Below are positions 4,921-58,568 of a DNA stretch of 64,000 nt, piece by piece. Source of the DNA: Leucoraja erinacea (taxonomy: Eukaryota); the NCBI RefSeq assembly GCF_028641065.1, contig NC_073410.1, positions 8,184,001 through 8,248,000 of the forward strand, read 5' to 3'. The stretch's first letter is position 1; the number at the start of each line of letters is the position of its first letter. Below the pieces are notes generated by a model that ran no database searches, was not told the origin of the DNA, and saw only the letters and a list, made by a program, of their open reading frames with translations. Made by a program: the position numbers and the translations under genes.

Positions 4921-5827
4921 CCCTTATCCCCCCACACACAAGACACACCGAGAGACATTAAAACGCACATTTGGACATACTGGAAAAAACAAAAAAATTA
5001 GACATGATTAACATGCTGCTGGCAGGGCAGCGGTTTTACAGTGCCCCTACCGACTAGATGAGAGCATCTTTGTTGGCCTGAGAGAGGTTACTGACTTGGT
5101 TTGCCTATCCTGGCATTGGAGGTAAAGGGAATTTGTTGAGCCAACGAATGATACTTCGTTGAGCCAATGATACTTTTCCAGAGCTTTGAAGTGCCTATTC
5201 TATATTATCCATGCCTGCAATGTATATTGGAAGGCTGCTTGGTAGACTGTGGCCTTGGTGCTTAGCGATGGATCTCCTTGCTCTCTCCCACAGGTAAAGT
5301 CATCATAAGGAGCACCTCCAACCATTTCTAAAGGAGCTCCACAATGGACATGCTCTTCACATGTGACTAACTCAAGAAAAATGTAAAGAGCCTGGAGTTT
5401 TTTTGACCTCACAAAAGCTCTTCACTCGGTCAACAAACTAGGTTAGCAATTCTTCTCAGCTTGTCTGTCTTCAGAAATGGTTGAAGTGTGTGAATAGATT
5501 GTTCCTGTTTTATTCCGTAAATTATGTGATTTTGGGCATCCTCATTCTTAATGCATCTTAACCATGAAGGATACAGTAGCAACTTGAATGTACAACCCCA
5601 AGCAATACATTCCCCCTATCTTTGGAATACAAAGGCCCATGTCCCATCTGAAAATGCACTGCAGCAACTCACTTCCTCCACAGCCACGTTGAAACCCACA
5701 ATTACCAGAAGGAAAAGAATAGTAGAATCCACCAACTGCATGTTCTGCACTAAAAGGTTGGGAAATATATTGACACACCTACATCAAACTTTGGTCTACC
5801 TTTACCACACAGACTGTTCCATATGAC

Positions 5828-5990
5828 TCACCATCTGCAAACTTGCTAATCATGCTTTTTACATTCTCATCCAAATCGTTGATATAAATTACAAACAGCA
5901 AAGGACTCGGCACTGATTCCTGAGGCACACCACTAGTCCCAGGACTCCAGTCCGAAAAACAACCTTCCACCATCACCCGTTGAAGCCAAT
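5828..5990 (-). mobile_element. CR1-clade LINE reverse transcriptase fragment
   Basis: TSGVPQESVPSPLLFVIYINDLDENVKSMISKFAD, the GVPQG...FADD RT motifs. Confidence 0.9.
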
Positions 5991-6176
5991 TTCTCGTTGG
6001 TGTAAACCAGCATCTGCAGTTCCTCCCTATACTAGAGAAGCCCTGTTAACTTTCATTGTAACTTCCATGATGCCAATTTCCTCTCCAGTCGGCTAGCTCT
6101 CCCTGGATCCCATGAAATCTATACCACTAGACCATTGCATTGGAAAAATGTTATACCAATGAATAACAATAAGAGT

Positions 6177-7824: not shown

Positions 7825-8049
7825 TACAAAATCTGAGAAAATAAACCAGGCACAGAGCTCTCTGCATTACCTGTGCATAACCGTGTTACTCTGAAATAAC
7901 TGCTCTATAAACTAGGAAACCGCAATGGTATAGAATTACACCTACCACAACAACTAAAGACTAATTAAATAAAATCCAGAGTTAAAATGTTCTTCAATGA
8001 AGATGATCTGAACCCATGACTGAGTCTAACAAGACCGTTGACTCTTAAG

Positions 8050-8775
8050 CAAAAAACAAACTGCAGAGGAACTCAGCGGCTCAGGCAGCATCTGTAGAGG
8101 GAAAAGGACAGATGACACTTTGGCCGAGGTGCTTCTTCAGATTGAGGTCGAGGAGAGCATTAGTTGAGGGGAACTGTTTGGGTATTGGGTCTGGGAGTAA
8201 ACAGAGGCCTCCGAGACCTTCCCAAGGTGGAATGGAAGTGTAAAGGTTTTCATGGTAAAGATGGGTAATGGAGTCCAAAGAATTAGAAGTTCTTGAAGTG
8301 GTAGAACGTGTGTGGGGTGGTCTGTATGTAGGTGGGAAGAGAGGAGACGAGATACAGTCACAGCATGAGGAGATGAGTTCAGTGGGGCAAGGGCAGACTG
8401 GGACCATGGGCTTGGCAGGGCAGTCCCGTTTGTGGATGTTGGGTAGGTGATGGGAATGGGCAGTGCATGGTTGGGGAACGGCAGGTTGGAGACTGTGGAG
8501 AGGAGATTGACGGAAGTGATGAAATCGGTCACGATTTGGGAGATAGTGGCCTGGTGTTGGTTGGTCAAATCATGGTCAGCGGATAGGTATGAGGAGATGT
8601 ACGAGAGCTAATGCCTAGCCTCAGCAAGATTAGACCACCAGACTACAGTGGCATCGCCTTCGCCAGCAGGTTCGATATGGGGTCGGTTCCATTTCCCTGC
8701 ACAGATGCTGCCTGTCCCTCTGATTTCCTCCAGCAGTTTGTTCATCATTCCAGCATCTGCAGTCTCATGTGCCTC
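8050..8775 (-). mobile_element. Penelope-like element remnant (RT N-terminal region) between inverted terminal-repeat pieces
   Basis: Frameshifted PLE RT motifs CPTELISS...LYTSIP...QFPSTNALL; family terminal repeats at 8050-8140 and 8690-8775. Confidence 0.8.
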
Positions 8776-9104
8776 TAGTTGACTCTCAGTTGCCAGCTGA
8801 AGTGGCCAGCACATCACCAAATACAGCCGGAATTAGGAACTGGCAACAAATCTGGTCCAGCCAGTAAAACATACATCCTGTGAATTTGTGCAAACAAGAT
8901 AATCCGTACTTAGTGATGTCAGTTAGATAATAAATATTGGCAATGACTTTGAGCAAAATGGAGTCGGCAGGAGGAAGAACTGTTAATTACCAGCTTGTGA
9001 TCAGTTGTGAAACTGACGCATAAATCTCAGAATTTACAATGAGCAACCATCTGAAGGACCTTGAAAATACCAGATTATTGTAAACTAACACATTAATTCC
9101 TAAT

Positions 9105-9335
9105 GTGAAGGAAGGAACTTCAGATGCTGGTTTACATATAGGCACAAAATGCTGGAGTAACTCAGCGGGATCAGCAGCATCTCTGGAGAGAAGGAATGGC
9201 CGTTGTTTTGGGTTGGGACTCTTCCTCGGACTGAAGCCAGTCTGAAGAAGGGTCTCAACCTGAAATGTCACCCATTCCTTCTCTCCAGAGATGCTGCCTG
9301 ACCCTCCGAGTTTCTCCAGCAGTTTGTGTCTATCT
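9105..9335. mobile_element. PLE-derived palindromic insert with two head-to-head decayed hammerhead motifs
   Basis: Arms AATGCTGGAGTAACTCAGCGG...GAGAGAAGGAATGG / CCATTCCTTCTCTCCAGAGATGCTGCC; axis near GACTGAAGCCAGTC (~9229-9242). Confidence 0.8.
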
Positions 9336-10446
9336 TTGCACTAATATCTATTCCTGCCCACTTTTCAATCCAGTTAGGACTTTATGATCTAATTGATCAG
9401 CAATCCAATGTCTTCAGTGTAATTGCATATAAAATATTAGTTCTTGGTTCTCCAAAATAAGTAAATGGAATTTAAACTGGAGGTGGTGAAGGGAGGGCTT
9501 AAGGCTGAAAGGGTTATTGGGTAGAAAGAGCAACTTTAAATTTAGTTGCATCTGGTTGGGTAACTATAGTTGGGTGGAAATTATTCCATGCTTTAATTGT
9601 GCGGGGGAAGAACGAATTGCTGTACACATCTGTCTTTGTAGCTGGGATCACAAATTGGATCGAATGCCCTCGTCTGCTCCTAATTGGTTTGGGTTTGGTG
9701 TAGGTCTTGTAGTCTATGTCGAGCTGACCATTTAATATTTTGTAATGTTAAAACAATGTTAGAACAAGTTCCTCCATTTATCAAATCCATTTGACAACGA
9801 GCGCTTTGTTAACAAGTGAATCAAATAATTTCTTGATCTGGATTCTCTTGTCACTTCTACTGTAAAGTCTGCATGTTGCTAATAATTATAAATGCTCCAT
9901 TTGTATTATTTTCCAGCCCATGTCACTAGTGGCTGGGTGGAATCTATCTTCCTGGTCGGCAAAGTGGAAAGTGTGACATGATGTATTTGAGACAAGTTAT
10001 TTTAAGATGTATTGGGTGACCTGTCTGACACTTCACTTCTTAAATTGCCTTCAATTTGTCCTTCTCTATGATACTTTATTTAATCCTAAATAAGTAGTTG
10101 ACACATATCATTTTACAATCTGCCGTAACATACAAATAAGGATTGGCATCTTATGCATGATTAATTACATATAAATATACTTTAAGACGTTTAATTCTGA
10201 ATTGTATCCGTTGCAATGTTCTTCATTAATCTAATTCGTTCTTCCTCTTTATTTATGTTCAGAGCCGATAACAATATTTCTCCTGCAGGTTATGAACAAC
10301 CTTCGGCAATAAAATCTCTATGAGGATATCACAACAAAGGATTTTTTAAATTTTACCAATACATTTGGACAATAAACAATTCTGCACCAATTTAGCCGTG
10401 ACACAGCTAAACCTTGACTGGTTGGCATGTCATGAGGTCATAGGTG

Positions 10447-10632
10447 TTCAAGAAGGAACTGCAGATGCTGGAAAATCGAAGGTAGACAAAAATGCTGGGG
10501 AAACTCAGCGGGCGAGGCAGCATCTATGGAGCAAAGGAAATAGGCAATGTTTCGTCCCGAAACGTTGCCTATTTCCTTCGCTCCATAGATGCTGCCTCAC
10601 CCGCTGAGTTTCTCCAGCGTTTTTGTCTACCT
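10447..10632. mobile_element. PLE-derived palindromic insert
   Basis: ~75-bp inverted arms centred on ATGTTTCGTCCCGAAACGTT; flanked by GAGGTCATA(G/A)GTG at 10434-46 and 10635-47. Confidence 0.85.
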
Positions 10633-11014
10633 ACGAGGTCATAAGTGATAGGAACAGAATTAGGCCATTTCGCCCATCAAGTCTACTCCACCATTCAATC
10701 AATCTCACCCTCCCAATCCCATTCTCCTGACTCTCCCACTCGTTGAAACATCCTCTCCACATCCACGCTATCCAAGCCCATTCTATTTAAAATGTCCCAT
10801 TCAGTTTAAAAAGTCACTTTAATTGTGGAGCTTTGAGCCAAGTGTGATGGAGGTAATGTGTGGCAGAATGGATACAAATACACATCTTAATGCTGACATT
10901 AAATGAAATTATTTTGAAAACAGTAGAACACAAATCCACTTTACTAATTCTCAATATACTTGGAGAAGGTAGTTATGAAGATTATGTTGCAAACCAAATA
11001 TTATCTTCTGATAT

Positions 11015-11586
11015 GTGAAGGAAAGAACTGCAGATGCCGGTCTAAATCAAAAACAGACACAAAATGCTGGTGTAACTCAGCGAGACAGGCAGCATCTCTG
11101 GAGAGAAGGAATGAGTGACGTTTCGGGTCGAGACCCTTCTTCAGACTCATGTCAGGGGAGTGGGAGGTACAGAGTTAAAATGTGGTCAGAGACAGTAAGA
11201 CTGGAGGGAGAACTGGTAAGGCAGAGGGGATGGAGAGAGAGAGGGAAACCTAAGGATTACGTGAAGTTAGAGAAGTCAATGTTCATACTGCTGGGGGCTG
11301 AGCTACCCAAGCTAAATACGAGGTGCTGTTCCTCCAATTAGCGCTGGGCATCACACTGACAATGGGGGAGGCCCAGGACAGAAAGGTTAGTGTGGGAATG
11401 GGAGGGGGAGTTAAAGTGTTGAGATCAGGTACATTTAGGTGGACTTAGCAGAGGTGTTCAGCGAAACGATCGCCGCGTCTGTGCTTGGTCTCGCTGATAT
11501 ACAGGAGACCACACCAAGAACAGCGGATATAGTAGATGAGGTTGGAGAAGGTGCAAGTGAACCTTTGCCTCATGTGAAAAGACTGT
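11015..11586 (-). mobile_element. Penelope-like element 3' end: GIY-YIG endonuclease remnant plus terminal repeat
   Basis: Minus 11586-11257 translates (with stops/frameshift) RQRFTCTFSNLIYYIRCSWCGLLYISETKHRRGDRFAEH...HFNSPSHSH...LEEQHLVFSLGS...MNIDFSNF*. Confidence 0.9.
11111..11150 (-). ncRNA. Minimal type I hammerhead ribozyme motif (PLE-associated)
   Basis: Minus strand AUGAGU-CUGAAGA-A-GGGU(CUCG)ACCC-GAA-ACGUC-ACUCAU: 6-bp stem I, core CUGANGA/GAA, stem II hairpin, palindromic ACGU stem III, GUC site. Confidence 0.8.
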
Positions 11587-12239
11587 CGGTACAGTCTGAT
11601 AAGCTGCTGGTTGGTGGTCAAGTGTTAAAGACCAACTTATTTCTGAAACTACTGGAGTTGTCTCAAGTGGGTATACAATATATTTCTTATCAAGTGTGTA
11701 AACAAACTTCTCAATAGCATGTCCCTACATGAGGGACACGGTTATTGTGTGGGTGAGAACACCAATAGGCCATGATTGGTGGAACAATTATAATCTTAGA
11801 ACTTAGAATATGCAAAGCTTTGTACATTAAATATGATAAATTGAGAAAGATTTAAATTCTTCAATGATTCATCACATATAAATCTTCTGTATTTGGTTGC
11901 CATGACAGTGTTTGCATATTTCTAACCGTTGGGGATAACTAATTGGAATAATAATATACTTGCTTATTTTCTGTCTGAGGTCACAGAAGTTTACCTGAAA
12001 GTAATATATCCAACCTTCCACTGGCTAAATGATCTGATAAGGCAATTGCAGTTTCATTAGCCATTGAAGTACTGAATGGATACAACAAAGACATAGGTGG
12101 CTGTGGATGACGAGGTAGCATCTATGCAAACTCTAGAACAGCCATTGGTTCTAATCCCACTCCTGTAACCGTTGCCGTGTCGGAATGTCCCAAGGCACCT
12201 CACTAGAATGTTTGCCCAACACACCCTGACTGAGAATCA

Positions 12240-16819: not shown

Positions 16820-17450
16820 ATAAGATAGACACGAACTGCTGCTGCAACTCAGCGGGTCAGGCAACAACTTTGGAGAAAATGGATAGGTGACGTTTCAGGT
16901 CGGGACCCTTCTTCACACTGATTGTGGGGGAGATGGGGGGGGGGGGGGGGGGTGGGGGAGTAACTGGAAACAAGAAAAGACCAGGACACATCAGAGCCGG
17001 TAACAGATGACCTCAGGCTAGGCCAGTGTGCTTCCAAGAGGGATACATCATTGCGAACTGTGAAACTGGTTAACTGACTTTTAGTTGAGGAAAGGGCCAA
17101 AGAGCGGGGTGTGGGTGGCGGTTGAGGAGGGGGGGGGGGGGGGGGGAGGAGGGGGGGGGGGGGAAGGGGAACGTTTGTAGAAATTACCAAAAAAATAGAG
17201 AATCCAACATTCATCACGCTGGGAAATGAATTATTTTGGCATTTGGGCCCATTTCCTTCAACAAGAATTGGTCGAGGTAACCAACAAAAAGGCAGGCATA
17301 GTTGGGGCCCATGCGAGTGCTCACGGCTGCATCTTTAACTTGGATAAAGTGAGAGGAGTGAATAGAGAAGCTGTTGAGGGTGAGGACAAGTTACGCTGGG
17401 TGGAGGAGAGTTAGAAGAGGAAAATTGGTTGGGTCTTTGTTCAAGGTAAA
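16820..17450 (-). mobile_element. Penelope-like element remnant (RT core plus terminal repeat, poly-G tracts)
   Basis: Minus strand LVLTLNSFS...HFIQVKDAAVSTRMGPNYACLFVGY; hammerhead-like motif ~16884-16920 with mutated C3. Confidence 0.8.
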
Positions 17451-17674
17451 AATACAGTTACTCTAACAATTTGTGTCATTCAGTGGTATAAACATCTGCC
17501 GTTCCCTTTTATTACTTTTAAAGATTTAAGCATACCTAATTATTATGAGATAAGTATATTTTAAATGCTAGGACTACAAATTAGGAATATCAGGTCAGTT
17601 AAATAATTTCACTTGCAATCCATTCCTTGCTTTCAGTGGGATATTTGTCCAACCATCAAGATGTATTGCTAAAG

Positions 17675-17800
17675 AGAAGGGTCTCGACCTGAAACGTCAC
17701 CCATTCTTTCCCTCCAGAGATGCTGCCTGTCCTGCTGAGTTACTCCAGTATTTTGTGTCTACCTTCAATTTAAACCAGAATCTACAGTTCTTTCCTATAC
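17675..17800 (+). mobile_element. PLE-derived terminal-repeat fragment
   Basis: GAAGGGTCTCGACCTGAAACGTCACCCATTC...TTACTCCAG. Confidence 0.75.
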
Positions 17801-17994: not shown

Positions 17995-18210
17995 CTGAAG
18001 ATAGACACAAAAAGCTGCAGCAACTCAGTGGGTCAGCCAGTATCTCTGGAGAAAAGGAATAGGTGAAGTTTTCGGTGGAGACCCTTGTTCAGACGTGACC
18101 CGACTTGTCTACTAAACCCTTATTCAAGAGATGATACCAGACCCACTGAGTTACTCCAGCATTTTGTATCTGTCTTCGGTGTAAACAAGCGTATGCAGTT
18201 CCATCCTGCA
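17995..18210. mobile_element. PLE-derived palindromic insert
   Basis: Inverted arms of family consensus; TTACTTATA repeated at both flanks. Confidence 0.7.
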
Positions 18211-23454: not shown

Positions 23455-23716
23455 ACTCCTCTTTAATCCATAGGTTTAAGAAGGGACTGCGGATGCTGGA
23501 AAATCGAAGGTGCACAAAAATGCTGGAGAAACTCAGCGGGTGCAGCAGCATCTATGGAGCGAAGGAGATAGGCAACGTTTCGAAGGCCCGAAACGATGCC
23601 TATCTCCTTCGCTCCATAGATGCTGCTGCACCCGCTGAGTTTCTCCAACATTTTTGTGTACCTTCGATTTTCCAGCATCCGCAGTCCCTTCTTAAACCTA
23701 TGGATTAAAGAGGAGT
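23455..23716. repeat. Near-perfect 262-bp palindrome (PLE-derived)
   Basis: ~128-bp arms with about 3 mismatches around a 6-nt spacer (TTTCG-AAGGCC-CGAAA). Confidence 0.95.
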
Positions 23717-24224: not shown

Positions 24225-24420
24225 GAGAGACACAAAATGCTGGAGTAACTAAGCGTGACCGGCAACATCTATGGACAGAAGGAATAGATGACATTTTGGG
24301 TTGTGACCCTTCTCCGGACTGTCTTCAACTTTCTGTGAAGTCCCGTTGCTCTTCAGCCTATTTCCTTCGCTCCATAGATGCTGCTGCACCCGCTGAATTT
24401 CTCCAGCATTTTTGTGTACC
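24225..24420. mobile_element. PLE-derived inverted pair (two subfamilies)
   Basis: GACACAAAATGCTGGAGTAACT... followed by GCCTATTTCCTTCGCTCCATAGATGCTGCTGCACCCGCTG. Confidence 0.7.
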
Positions 24421-54131: not shown

Positions 54132-54680
54132 ATTATGCTACTACCTTCAGCAGTTGTATCATCAATGAAGATAAGTGAGCCAGTACCTTCAGCAGCCATA
54201 CATGCCCAGGCCATAACACCCCCACCACTGTGTTTCACAGATGAGGTGGTGTGCTCTGGATCTTGGGCAGTTCCTTCTCTCCTCCATACTTTGCTCTTGT
54301 CATCACTCTGATATGTTAATCTTCGTCTCATCTGTCCACAAGACCTTTTTCCAGAACTGTGGTTGCTCTGTTAAGTACTTCTTGGCAAACTGTAACCTGG
54401 CCATCCTATTTTTGCAGCTAACCAGTGGTTTGCAACTTGCAGCGTAGCCTTTGTATTTCTGTTCTTGAAGCCTTCTGTGGACAGTGGCCATGGACAAATC
54501 CACTCCTGAAGAGTGTTTCTGATCTGTCGGACAGGTGTTTGAGGATTTTTCTTTATTATAGAGAATTCTTCTGTCATCAGCTGTGGAGGTCTTCCTTGGC
54601 CTGCCAGTCCCTTTGCTATTAGTAAGCTCACCAGTGTCTCTTTCTTCTTAATGATGTTCCAAACAGTTGATTTTGGTAAG

Positions 54681-56224
54681 ACTTGTTGCGTGTCGGCGAC
54701 AACATGGAAAAGTTGGAGAACAGAAGATGGCAGACTTGCCTCTGGAGAGGATTCTACCTGAATATTTAACACCTGAAAGAAAAGCCTCCATTTACAGACG
54801 TGGGAGTGGATTATTTTGGTACTATAGAGGTGAAGAGAGGATGAAGCCTTGTAAAAAGGTACGGTGCAATCTTCACTTGCATGGCAAGTAGAGCAGTTCA
54901 TCTTGAAGTTGCATCCACACTTGACACAGACTCCTGCATTCATGCATTACGGAGATTTATCTGTCGACGAGGTAAAGTTTCATCGTTAAGATCAGATAAT
55001 GGTTCGAATTTTGTTGGAGCTGAAAGAGAATGAAAAGAAGCATTTTAAAGGCTTAAATCAGGATAAGATCCAGAATGCTATGCTTCAACAAGGGATAAGA
55101 TGGAACTTGAATCCTCCAACGGCTTCTCATCATGGCGGTGTATGGGAACGGTTGATCTGCATGGTTCGAAATGTGCTACGCTCTGTTCTTAAACTACAAG
55201 ATCTGGACGATGAAGGATGACAAACTTTATTCTGTGAAGTTGAAGCAATTTAAATGATCGACCTATTACTAAGAGTTCTGATGATCCAAACGACCTGGAA
55301 GCGCTTGCACCAAATCATATTCTTCTGTTGAAGACCAATCCAATACTACCACCTGGACTCTGTGTAAGAAGATTTGTATATAAAATGCAGATGGAGACAA
55401 GATCTTTTTTGGAAGAGATGGACAGAAGAATATTTGCCTCTGATCCAAGAGCGAGAACGATGGTCGAATGTTAGAAGAAATTTTGTCCCAGGTGATATTG
55501 TTTTGGTGGTTGATTCTACTGCATCACGAAGGTTCTTGGTTGATGGGAAGGATACTGGAGATCATGCCTGACGTTAAGGGTTTGGTGCGCACAGTACGAC
55601 TTCAGACTAAGCACGATATTTTAATAAGACCAATAACCAAGTTATGCTTGCTTCTAGAAGGTGAAGATGGAAGAATCGCTAAAGAAGTTTGAATGCTGAT
55701 ATGTAATGCATGTTATTTTTAGTTTTTTGATATATGTTAAGCTTTTATAGCTTTTTTAAAAAATGTCTATTAGTAATTGCCTCGTTATATACCAGCCCCT
55801 AATTGCTCTGTATGTAGTAGCCATTTATCTTAACTTCGTATGTTATAACTATAACCAGTTACCTTTAAATTTTATCTGCCTGTAATTATGTGGGTGGGAT
55901 TTATACATAGTCTGAGGCGTGTTTGCGGCAGGGATTCTCACGCATACTCCCCAGTAGTTTAGTTTGAAGAAGCATGGGGGAGAGGTCAGTTTTTGACCAT
56001 GCTTGAATTGAAATGTACTTGTGCTAGAAGAAGTTTGGATGAATATCTTACTGTTTTTGCGACTACAATAAAGAAACTATTAATCAAGAGACTGTGTTTG
56101 GAAGATTTATCTTTCGAAGGCATTGAGAGCTTGTGGGTGCGTATCGATTATCTTCTGATCCCCTGTCTTCAATTAGTGACTAAAGGACTAAATCCTTGAA
56201 AAGATATAAAAATCTGACACTACA
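54681..56224 (+). mobile_element. BEL/Pao LTR retrotransposon 3' fragment (integrase plus 3' LTR)
   Basis: [88 protein letters not shown] (frameshifted); LTR TGTAG 55813 to CTACA 56224. Confidence 0.9.
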
Positions 56225-58568
56225 ACTACCATCAGCAGTTGGATCATCAATGAAGATAAGTGCCTTCAGCAGCCATACATGCCCAGGCCATATCCCCGCC
56301 GCCATGTTTCACAGATGAGGTGGTGTGTTTTGGATCTTGAGCAGTTCCTTCTCTCCTCCATATTTTACTCTTCCCCTCACTCTGATATGTTGATCTTCAT
56401 TTCATCTGTCCACAAGATCTTGTCACAGAACTGTGGTAGCTCTGTTAAGTACTTCTTGGCAAACTGTAACCTGGCCATCCTATTTTTGCAGCTAACCAGT
56501 GGTTTGCAAGTTGCTGCGTAGCCTCTATTTCTGTTCATGTCTACGAAGCGTGGTCATTGACAAATCCACACTTGACTCCTGAAGAATGTTTCTGATCTGT
56601 TGGACAGGTGTTTGGGGATTTTTCTTTATAGAGAGAATTCTTCTGTCATCAGCTGTGGAGGTCTTCCTTGGCCTGCCAGTCCTTTTGCGATTAATACGCT
56701 CACCAGTGCTCTCTTTCTTCTTAATGATGTTCCAAACAGTTGATTTTGGTAAGCCTAAGATTTGGCTGATGTCTCTCTAACAGATTTGTTCTGGTTTCTC
56801 GGTCTCATAATGGTTTCTTTGACTTTCACAACTTTGGTTCTCATGTTGATAAACAGTAATAAAATATTCCAAAGGTGATGGAAAGATTGGAGGAAAGACT
56901 AGGTGCTGAGAGATCTCTTGTACCTGCATTAAGGAGGCATTTAAACATGCCTGAGCATTGACAAACACTTGTGAAGCTATGTGTCCCAAATATTATGGCC
57001 CCCTAAAATGGGGGGAACAATGTATAAACACAGCTGTAATTTCTTCTTGGTGAAACCAAAATGAATAAAAATACCCTTTAATAAAATCTGACAATGTGCA
57101 GTTTAACCACATGTGAATTTCTTTCTTTTGTTTTCTTTTCTATTACAAATCTCAAATTGTGGAGTACAGAGGCAAATAAATAAATGTTGGGTCTTTGTCC
57201 CAAACATTATGGAGGCCACTGTATTTAAGTTCAGAGTTGTATGACAATTTAAATTTATTTTGATATATTTATTCTATTTCCTTAATGGCCATATACTTTG
57301 ACTTGGTGCTGGGTAGTAGTGGAGAATAATTAATGTACTGTAACTGTAATAACATTGTCCAGCTGTGAGCAGCAATCTGTTTATTTAACACCTGAAAGAA
57401 AAGGCATCATCAGGGTGGTCCCTCATTTTTTTTATTTAAACACAACACTTGCTGCCCATCATCCCTTTTTCTCCCACTGCCTTCCATTCTTTCTGAAGGG
57501 TACTGATGTCTGGGATTGTTGCACAGGTGTTGGCCATTATTGGATATTTCATTTAAACAAACTATTCATCATGAGCTCAGACAATAAAGGCCATAAAAGT
57601 TGTGACTGAGCCCATGTGCAATGACATTGAATCTTTACAACAGAAACAATGTGATAGAATAGTATTTTCTGCTTCTTGCTGGATCCTGGGGCTGTGGTCA
57701 CTTTTGCTGTCCTTAATGTTGTCTGAGGTTTTCATGGAAAGCTTTTCATTGGGTTGAGAGAGAGTTTTAGTTTCTATGGGTACTTGTACATCGTTGTTAA
57801 TTCAGGAACCAATGCTTATTTATTTGCTAACACACTCCATTTGACTGTTAGTTAAATTATATTTATATATTCAGAAGGATGTCTTGGGAGAGGATGGAGA
57901 ATCCCTTTATATTGGCACATTTTACTTGTATGTCACATTGCTGGTACAGTTGGAAGGTGCAAGCTTTTACTATCGTTTATGCGGACTATGTAGCAATTAT
58001 GATCATAGCAGTGGAAGATGAAAAGAGAAACTACATGCTTCCAAACTGAAAGAGGAAAATATATTGTCAGATATTTGATCACCAAATCAGGATGAATGGA
58101 AAGTGCTGGTAATATTGTAAGTGGTTCCTGTGTGACCATTTCAAAGCTTGACAAACTGATGTGAGCTGGATGAGACTTGAGTGGATGTGACTGGTGCAAA
58201 CAAAATGATTGATTCCTCTGATTTGGATTGACCATGGCCAGGTTGGGAATTAATTTTTATATAAGTAGACTTTGAGAAGTTCTTTTAGCTTGTCTTTAAA
58301 AATAAAAAGTACATATAATATGTATGGCTAAATGACTTGCATGGTTTAGAAATTACTACCATCAACCCAATCATGCGTTTTGTCTCTGATTTTGTTTTCC
58401 CAGTAAAGATAACTTCATCTGGTCTCGTGTGTTCTTTTTGGACAGTCACACGTTATGCAAAAACAATGCTATTTTGTTTCTAAGCCAACCTGTCTAGCTC
58501 TTTGCTCCTGCCTTCTATTTTTTTTTTTTTTTTTACTGCTTTGTTTTCCATTTCTTTTGCTGCTGCAG

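Follow-up and report, generated by a model that had tools for sequence, protein, structure and literature searches.

A minimal type I hammerhead motif with a perfectly paired stem I in a truncated Penelope-like insertion of Leucoraja erinacea

The window analysed here is a stretch of 64,000 nucleotides from Leucoraja erinacea (contig NC_073410.1, positions 8,184,001 to 8,248,000 of the forward strand), and all positions below are counted from its first letter. At about 11 kb it holds the remains of a Penelope-like element, inserted on the minus strand between two copies of a short direct repeat and still carrying a complete hammerhead motif in its terminal repeat. The parts of the insertion are as follows.

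11007..11013, plus strand: left copy of the target-site duplication TCTGATA, a 7-bp direct repeat
11014..11594, minus strand: 5′-truncated Penelope-like insertion of 581 bp, consisting of the endonuclease end, the hammerhead-bearing terminal repeat and the tail
11111..11150, minus strand (read 11150→11111): the whole minimal type I hammerhead motif
11263..11588, minus strand: broken C-terminal frame of a GIY-YIG endonuclease, with a frameshift near 11424, two in-frame stops and visible CCHH residues
11595..11601, plus strand: right copy of the target-site duplication TCTGATA, a 7-bp direct repeat

When RNA runs and contigs were mapped on 10800-11800, the read depth contributed by the family was restricted to bins 11004-11615. 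ATGTGAA, likewise repeated over 7 bp (11013 and 11572), was ruled out as the target-site duplication because position 11572 falls within the endonuclease frame. Only one terminal repeat lies between the duplications, with neither a tandem nor a partial-tandem arrangement, and the insertion is a truncated, inactive member of its family. At least 28 of its 581 positions depart from the family majority among the sites listed (about five of which may be indel edges), and the copy has therefore decayed by about 5%. Both junctions are covered by contigs of a second organism, which differ at 8 of 238 letters in one case and at 6 of 258, with 2 gaps besides, in the other (about 3%), so that the insertion is old and predates that split. 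As a separate observation, a small inverted duplication, AGACTGT-CGGT-ACAGTCT, occupies 11580-11597, where the 5′ end of the insertion meets the flank, and resembles a short fold-back located where the element was truncated.

The preliminary description of this DNA had placed a GIY-YIG remnant upstream of the motif, and alignment by protein relatives confirmed it at 11588-11263 of the minus strand, with the hammerhead about 107 nt downstream of the broken frame. The 51-aa endonuclease remnant had no Pfam match, and a word-indexed protein search was likewise empty; a further search, with a threshold of E 0.001, returned 553 relatives. Among 16 chosen relatives that were scanned, 9 matched GIY-YIG (8 of them below the curated cut-off) and two matched both RVT_1 and GIY-YIG; relatives of this set align back to 11588-11263. 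Of the 10 relatives looked up, 6 came from named cartilaginous fishes. Three relatives (P0003, P0006 and P0094) contain a C-x3-4-C-xx-C linker, the position of which the copy at 11014..11594 does not reach. In passages of PMC8557442, a CX2-5CxxC linker ahead of the endonuclease is given as a mark of Neptune and Nematis elements. Judged by these sequences, the family is probably a Neptune-type one of cartilaginous fish. The 7-bp duplication, the 5′ truncation and clusters of 3′ ends that fit an optional tail of 30-40 bp are all traits of endonuclease-positive Penelope-like elements. Copies of the family gave no match in viral contigs and none in two metagenome scans, and the literature covered, itself incomplete, yielded no publication that describes this family from skates or rays.

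The hammerhead reads, on the minus strand, AUGAGU CUGAAGA A GGGUC UC GACCC GAAAC GUC ACUCAU. The position 11111..11150 given in the preliminary description is correct, and the strand, which it had left unstated, is the minus strand. In standard hammerhead numbering the motif divides into the following parts.

11145..11150, minus strand: 5′ arm of stem I, ATGAGT in this copy and ATCAGT in the family majority, differing at 11148
11137..11144, minus strand: core C3-A9, CUGAAGA (C3 = 11144), and an unpaired A (11137) between A9 and G10.1
11125..11136, minus strand: stem II hairpin GGGUC-UC-GACCC
11117..11124, minus strand: GAAA, the palindromic ACGU that replaces stem III, and C17 (11117)
11111..11116, minus strand: 3′ arm of stem I, ACTCAT in this copy and ACCCAT or ACCTAT in the family, differing at 11114

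All 13 positions checked in the conserved core (C3-A9, G12-A14, A15.1-U16.1 and H17, here a C) agree with the consensus, and the predicted cut would fall between 11117 and 11116. Helix I of this copy forms six of six pairs. Stem II, closed by the G10.1-C11.1 pair (G 11136 with C 11125), has 5 bp with a 2-nt loop or, in the ViennaRNA fold, 4 bp with a 4-nt loop. The core nucleotides, the perfect stem I, the stem II hairpin and the self-complementary ACGU were thus all as first described, with the addition of the unpaired A at 11137, which had gone unmentioned. The pattern CTGANGA-N8-20-GAAACGTH occurs twice in the window and not once in 100 shuffles, and the motif at 11111..11150 is real, beyond chance; one of these two strict-pattern matches has a perfect 6-bp stem I. 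On its own, the 40-mer folds into stems I and II, with a stability that is not unusual relative to shuffles (z −0.84). Read on the plus strand the same two stems fold, but the core and the reading frame sit on the minus strand, and the plus-strand reading was set aside. Rfam returned no match at gathering score anywhere in the window, and relaxing the threshold to E 10 within 10900-11400 still brought up no hammerhead; a HOTTIP_3 match near the motif (E 3.7) was dismissed as chance.

By its sequence features, the motif belongs to the minimal hammerheads (min-HHRs) of Penelope-like elements, a kind already known, as the preliminary description had proposed when it placed it with the minimal type I hammerheads carried by Penelope-like terminal repeats. 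Passages of Cervera and de la Peña 2014 (PMC4209133) set out the min-HHRs of metazoan Penelope-like elements, with their palindromic stem III and the idea that they work as dimers, and report monomers of the published minimal motifs as inactive and dimers as weakly active; the dimer requirement that had been put forward for such motifs is this published view. The copy at 11111..11150 shares with the motifs described there the type I form, the palindrome in place of helix III, the extra nucleotide between 9 and 10.1 and the G10.1-C11.1 pair, all three of the latter being present here at the corresponding positions (ACGU at 15.2-16.2). Alike, too, are the location in a terminal repeat and the occurrence mostly as single truncated copies, and the same passages report min-HHRs in fish Xena, Poseidon and Neptune elements. 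Schistosoma min-HHRs are given there with a helix I of 4-5 bp and a helix II of 7-8 bp, whereas here helix II has 4-5 bp and helix I has 6 bp in the copy and 2+2 bp in the family majority. Neither shark nor skate appears in the two files covered of the supplement to PMC4209133. Dimeric cleavage, which the preliminary description inferred, is also described for the small Penelope-like hammerheads of Lünse, Weinberg and Breaker (via review passages of PMC6765202), which likewise have a very short palindromic stem III, a likeness that is one of description only.

A further point of comparison is PAc, a Poseidon element of Anolis carolinensis, for which parts of Frangieh et al. 2024 (PMC11167929) describe a hammerhead that cuts only with the element's protein, that is dispensable for insertion in vitro, and at whose cut site no RNA-seq ends fall. 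PAc resembles the skate family in its terminal-repeat hammerhead, and its two reverse-transcription start sites, with an optional tail, match the two clusters of 3′ ends described below; it differs in being active and of the Poseidon clade, whereas the copy at 11014..11594 is dead and has relatives with a Neptune/Nematis-type linker. Non-LTR retrozymes (Li et al., bioRxiv 10.64898/2026.07.22.740005) carry type I hammerheads related to those of Penelope-like terminal repeats and, in the portion of that text covered, are reported in one chondrichthyan. They are tandem head-to-tail non-coding units, whereas here one insertion, flanked by a target-site duplication, carries an endonuclease remnant, and retrozyme identity was rejected on the ground that this is a single copy fused to an endonuclease remnant. 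With minimal hammerheads in fish Penelope-like repeats and the dimer requirement in print since 2014, the single copy in itself matters little.

What sets the copy apart is its stem I. Two RNA runs (X24 and X22) and two contig sets (X1 and X5), from two organisms, were mapped on 10800-11800 at 85% likeness, a level chosen so that family copies map; this gives letters site by site, from the best rows listed, and no haplotypes. At 11148, a letter other than that of the copy was found in 1048 of 1177 (X24) and 3650 of 4037 (X22) reads and in 97% (X1) and 96% (X5) of contig depth. At 11114 this was the case in 19245 of 20869 (X24) and 22483 of 24596 (X22) reads and in 94% and 91% of contig depth. 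The family majority letter on the minus strand is C at both sites, so that the family stem I, ATCAGT/ACCCAT, consists of 2 bp, a 2×2 mismatch (A·C, C·C) and 2 bp; a natural long copy at 16883-16922 is of this family type, with ATCAGT/ACCTAT. The departure of the 3′ arm from the usual ACCCAT, as first noticed, holds against the read and contig majority, but the accompanying difference in the 5′ arm had been overlooked. The family majority differs on both arms, each change in this copy closes one mismatch, and no pair has been preserved through a double change: the perfect stem is the product of two separate mismatch-to-pair changes, one per arm, and is not covariation. The stem covariation that the preliminary description implied also failed to emerge from 14 gap-free window copies, where the covariation score was 0.096 against a shuffled mean of 0.104 and 326 of 500 shuffles scored at least as high. 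Within the window this is the outcome that the preliminary description had itself named as refuting its reading, though the test is weak, since most of these copies are without the 5′ arm. Over the same 14 copies, 81% of the cells of stem II were paired, and changes on both sides were seen in none of its five pairs.

We consider it probable that this is an old, fixed and dead copy, ordinary debris of a very abundant family, and that its perfect stem arose from two chance mutations after insertion. Neutral changes, one on each arm, would have closed both stem I mismatches. Point mutation would be the route, possibly with one step of hairpin-templated repair, a known process acting on imperfect inverted repeats that could supply such a step. 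A single template switch as the sole cause was rejected because the changes sit on both arms.

Folding in context places the motif at a disadvantage. The pairing probability of stem I is 0.68-0.88 in an 81-nt context versus 0.02-0.04 in contexts of 151-581 nt, where stem I is lost to pairing of its 5′ arm with upstream sequence and of the core with UCCUUCU/CAG downstream. Forcing the hammerhead fold in context costs 3.3-3.5 kcal/mol. The predicted competitor is the following structure.

11098..11144, minus strand: competing hairpin in which the core CUG/AGAAGGG pairs with UCCUUCU/CAG 3′ of the motif, hiding the catalytic core; the predicted minimum-energy fold in 151- and 249-nt contexts

Family variants with TCCTTTT would still pair with the core, which might amount to a family-wide off state, the fold having been computed for the 11111..11150 copy alone. 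For two molecules, the predicted energies are −18.5 kcal/mol for the double-hammerhead dimer, −30.3 for the plain duplex and 2 × −10.1 = −20.2 for two monomers. Since the energy models omit Mg2+ and the tertiary contacts of the core, folding lowers the odds of cleavage and does not decide the matter. In an active tandem element, two motifs would pair through their ACGU, swap stem I arms and be cut after GUC; going by the literature, such tandem cleavage would be slow and perhaps would take place only with the element's protein. The copy could probably cleave weakly as an engineered, synthetic dimer in vitro, and dimer cleavage in vivo is unlikely for a single copy without a tandem partner. With no such partner, a disfavoured fold and a locus that shows no sign of transcription, the hammerhead copy most likely does nothing in the cell. 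The family-type (2+2 bp) and the 6-bp stem I, two bases apart, nevertheless form a natural test pair for asking whether stem I limits cleavage, and this pair bears on the question, raised in passages of PMC8557442, of whether these hammerheads matter for transposition.

Other copies of the element's end, 34 of which were matched elsewhere in the window with a threshold of E 1e-3, give a view of where copies begin and end. Of the 18 window copies that span the core, only two keep core and ACGT, namely 11111..11150 and the second strict-pattern copy at 33973-34000, 23 kb distant and without the 5′ arm. Eleven of the 18 start within 11145-11149, which lies some 30 nt upstream of where the cut is predicted, and their templates were therefore uncut at 11117. 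Among the strand-switch joints listed for genomic contigs, many end at 11145-11147. The start region corresponds to the family TCAGT (11149-11145), its CAG following a pyrimidine tract, and 7 of the 11 copies keep the G that precedes the T of TCAGT (P = 0.008 by chance). TCAGT resembles the initiator consensus, with the A at 11147. An Inr-like TCACT has been noted in rotifer repeats (passage in PMC3846280), and in Drosophila virilis the 5′ end of helix I marks the end of the intron (parts of PMC4209133; intron and promoter passages of PMC2377424). From sequence, 11145-11149 is a candidate RNA 5′ end, splice acceptor or stall site, and the clustering of 5′ ends within the stem I arm offers a lead on where the element's RNA starts. 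A donor near the stop codon (11260) spliced to the family CAG at 11148-11146 did not appear among the 15 joints listed of 507, and the arm joined by such a splice would pair no better. At the other end, the 3′ ends of window copies fall into two clusters, at query positions 562-573 and 600-612, about 35-40 nt apart, which is the known optional tail. One further copy, at 24362-24417 (plus strand), seems to start at the first base of the cleavage product (GCCTAT variant); it is one of the 34 matches and could be due to chance.

At the level of the family, it is quite possible, if somewhat short of probable, that the motif is unused as a ribozyme in transposition, uncut RNA being copied and the hammerhead being weak, off or vestigial, a reading compatible with that of a dead copy altered by chance. 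The two central mismatches in the family stem I, the hairpin that hides the core, the 11 of 18 core-spanning copies made from uncut templates and the Anolis hammerhead mutants that leave insertion in vitro unaffected (passages of PMC11167929) all speak for such disuse. However, the core, the extra A, the G10.1-C11.1 pair and the ACGU are all the majority state in the family, which suggests selection in active masters, and parts of the same source report cleavage by the Anolis hammerhead in the presence of the element's protein.

For the perfect stem of this one copy, the alternative to chance mutation is inheritance. An unchanged 28-nt core at about 5% decay has P = 0.25, while drift that closes both mismatches and leaves the other 38 nt untouched has P of about 1.6-1.8e-4 per long copy. 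Three window copies keep the upstream sequence (the hammerhead copy, 16827-16940 and, by eye, 8043-8157), and plain drift comes to P of about 5e-4 per window with three long copies. The figure weighs against plain drift, which needs many windows to have been scanned and the neatest copy to have been chosen; in a genome that we take to be 2-3 Gb in size, some tens of such copies would be expected. The low probability per copy would be explained if a minor master element, a subfamily with a perfect stem I, had passed on both changes, which would then reflect selection on the ribozyme. At each of the two positions, 3-11% of reads or contig depth depart from the majority letter, the window contains further subfamilies (GCCTAT 3′ arms together with a different upstream sequence being one example), and site-by-site mapping without haplotypes leaves room for a share below about 3-10%. 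Yet the non-majority share, 6-9% at 11114 and 3-11% at 11148, is no higher than at the private sites 11083 (8-10%), 11366 (4%) and 11388 (5%), it stays low although the mapping favours the reference letter, and ACTCAT occurs in none of the other core-spanning window copies (18 in all). We regard a subfamily origin as unlikely, and two chance mutations in a dead copy as the better account.

RNA depth was about 0 on both unique flanks of the insertion, and no pile-up of molecule ends was seen in the two RNA runs, of unspecified tissues, of which about 5% and 1% were sampled. In the single-cell run X22, plus-strand reads were in excess by 7:1, which we set aside as evidence because A-rich loose ends suggest internal priming. 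Separately, 246 RNA reads with 77 starts in run X24 share one strand-switch joint, 11096/11252, which suggests that a fold-back copy at another genomic site is expressed.

That the two changes made a working ribozyme at a fixed locus, kept by the host, for instance as a means of cleaving or terminating a transcript, would accord with the intact core, the perfect stem I, the presence of the insertion in the second organism and the five of six pairs that each swapped stem I would form with a family-type partner, but it is very improbable given that the unique flanks show no RNA depth, that the 169 of 169 stop-free frames (≥72 aa, outside 31000-35100, short exons being missed) contain transposon remnants and no host-gene domain, that the intactness of the core is within chance (P = 0.25) and that the sole other strict-pattern copy lies 23 kb off without a 5′ arm. 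Hardly more credible is its fuller form, in which the family hammerhead would be off, through its mismatched stem I, the hairpin that hides the core and a splice acceptor or RNA 5′ end in the 5′ arm (TCAGT, 11149-11145), and the fixed copy, having regained a perfect stem I after insertion, would be a new ribozyme transcribed and kept by the host; were it true, a ribozyme would have arisen from transposon debris through two mutations.

Several further features of the window concern the same or other mobile elements. Two longer Penelope-like remnants, at 8043-8741 and 16827-17796, have a direct terminal repeat and an inverted one, with reverse-transcriptase pieces on the minus strand (8676-8144 and 17438-17232); no endonuclease part was detected in them, and they are probably internal deletions. 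Stretches at 5782-6045, 51026-51367, 54306-54647, 55444-55689 and 56528-56776 include Tc1/mariner transposase remnants, a DUF5641 piece and an RVT_1 piece. The region 31000-35100, which lay outside the Pfam scan, has a GC content of 27-39% and long stop-free frames on both strands, and probably consists of simple tandem repeats. The element's end also forms head-to-head fold-back mini insertions, at 9103-9338, 10452-10628, 18003-18210, 23480-23691, 24228-24417, 25912-26111 and 28916-29066, an arrangement described for Penelope-like elements.
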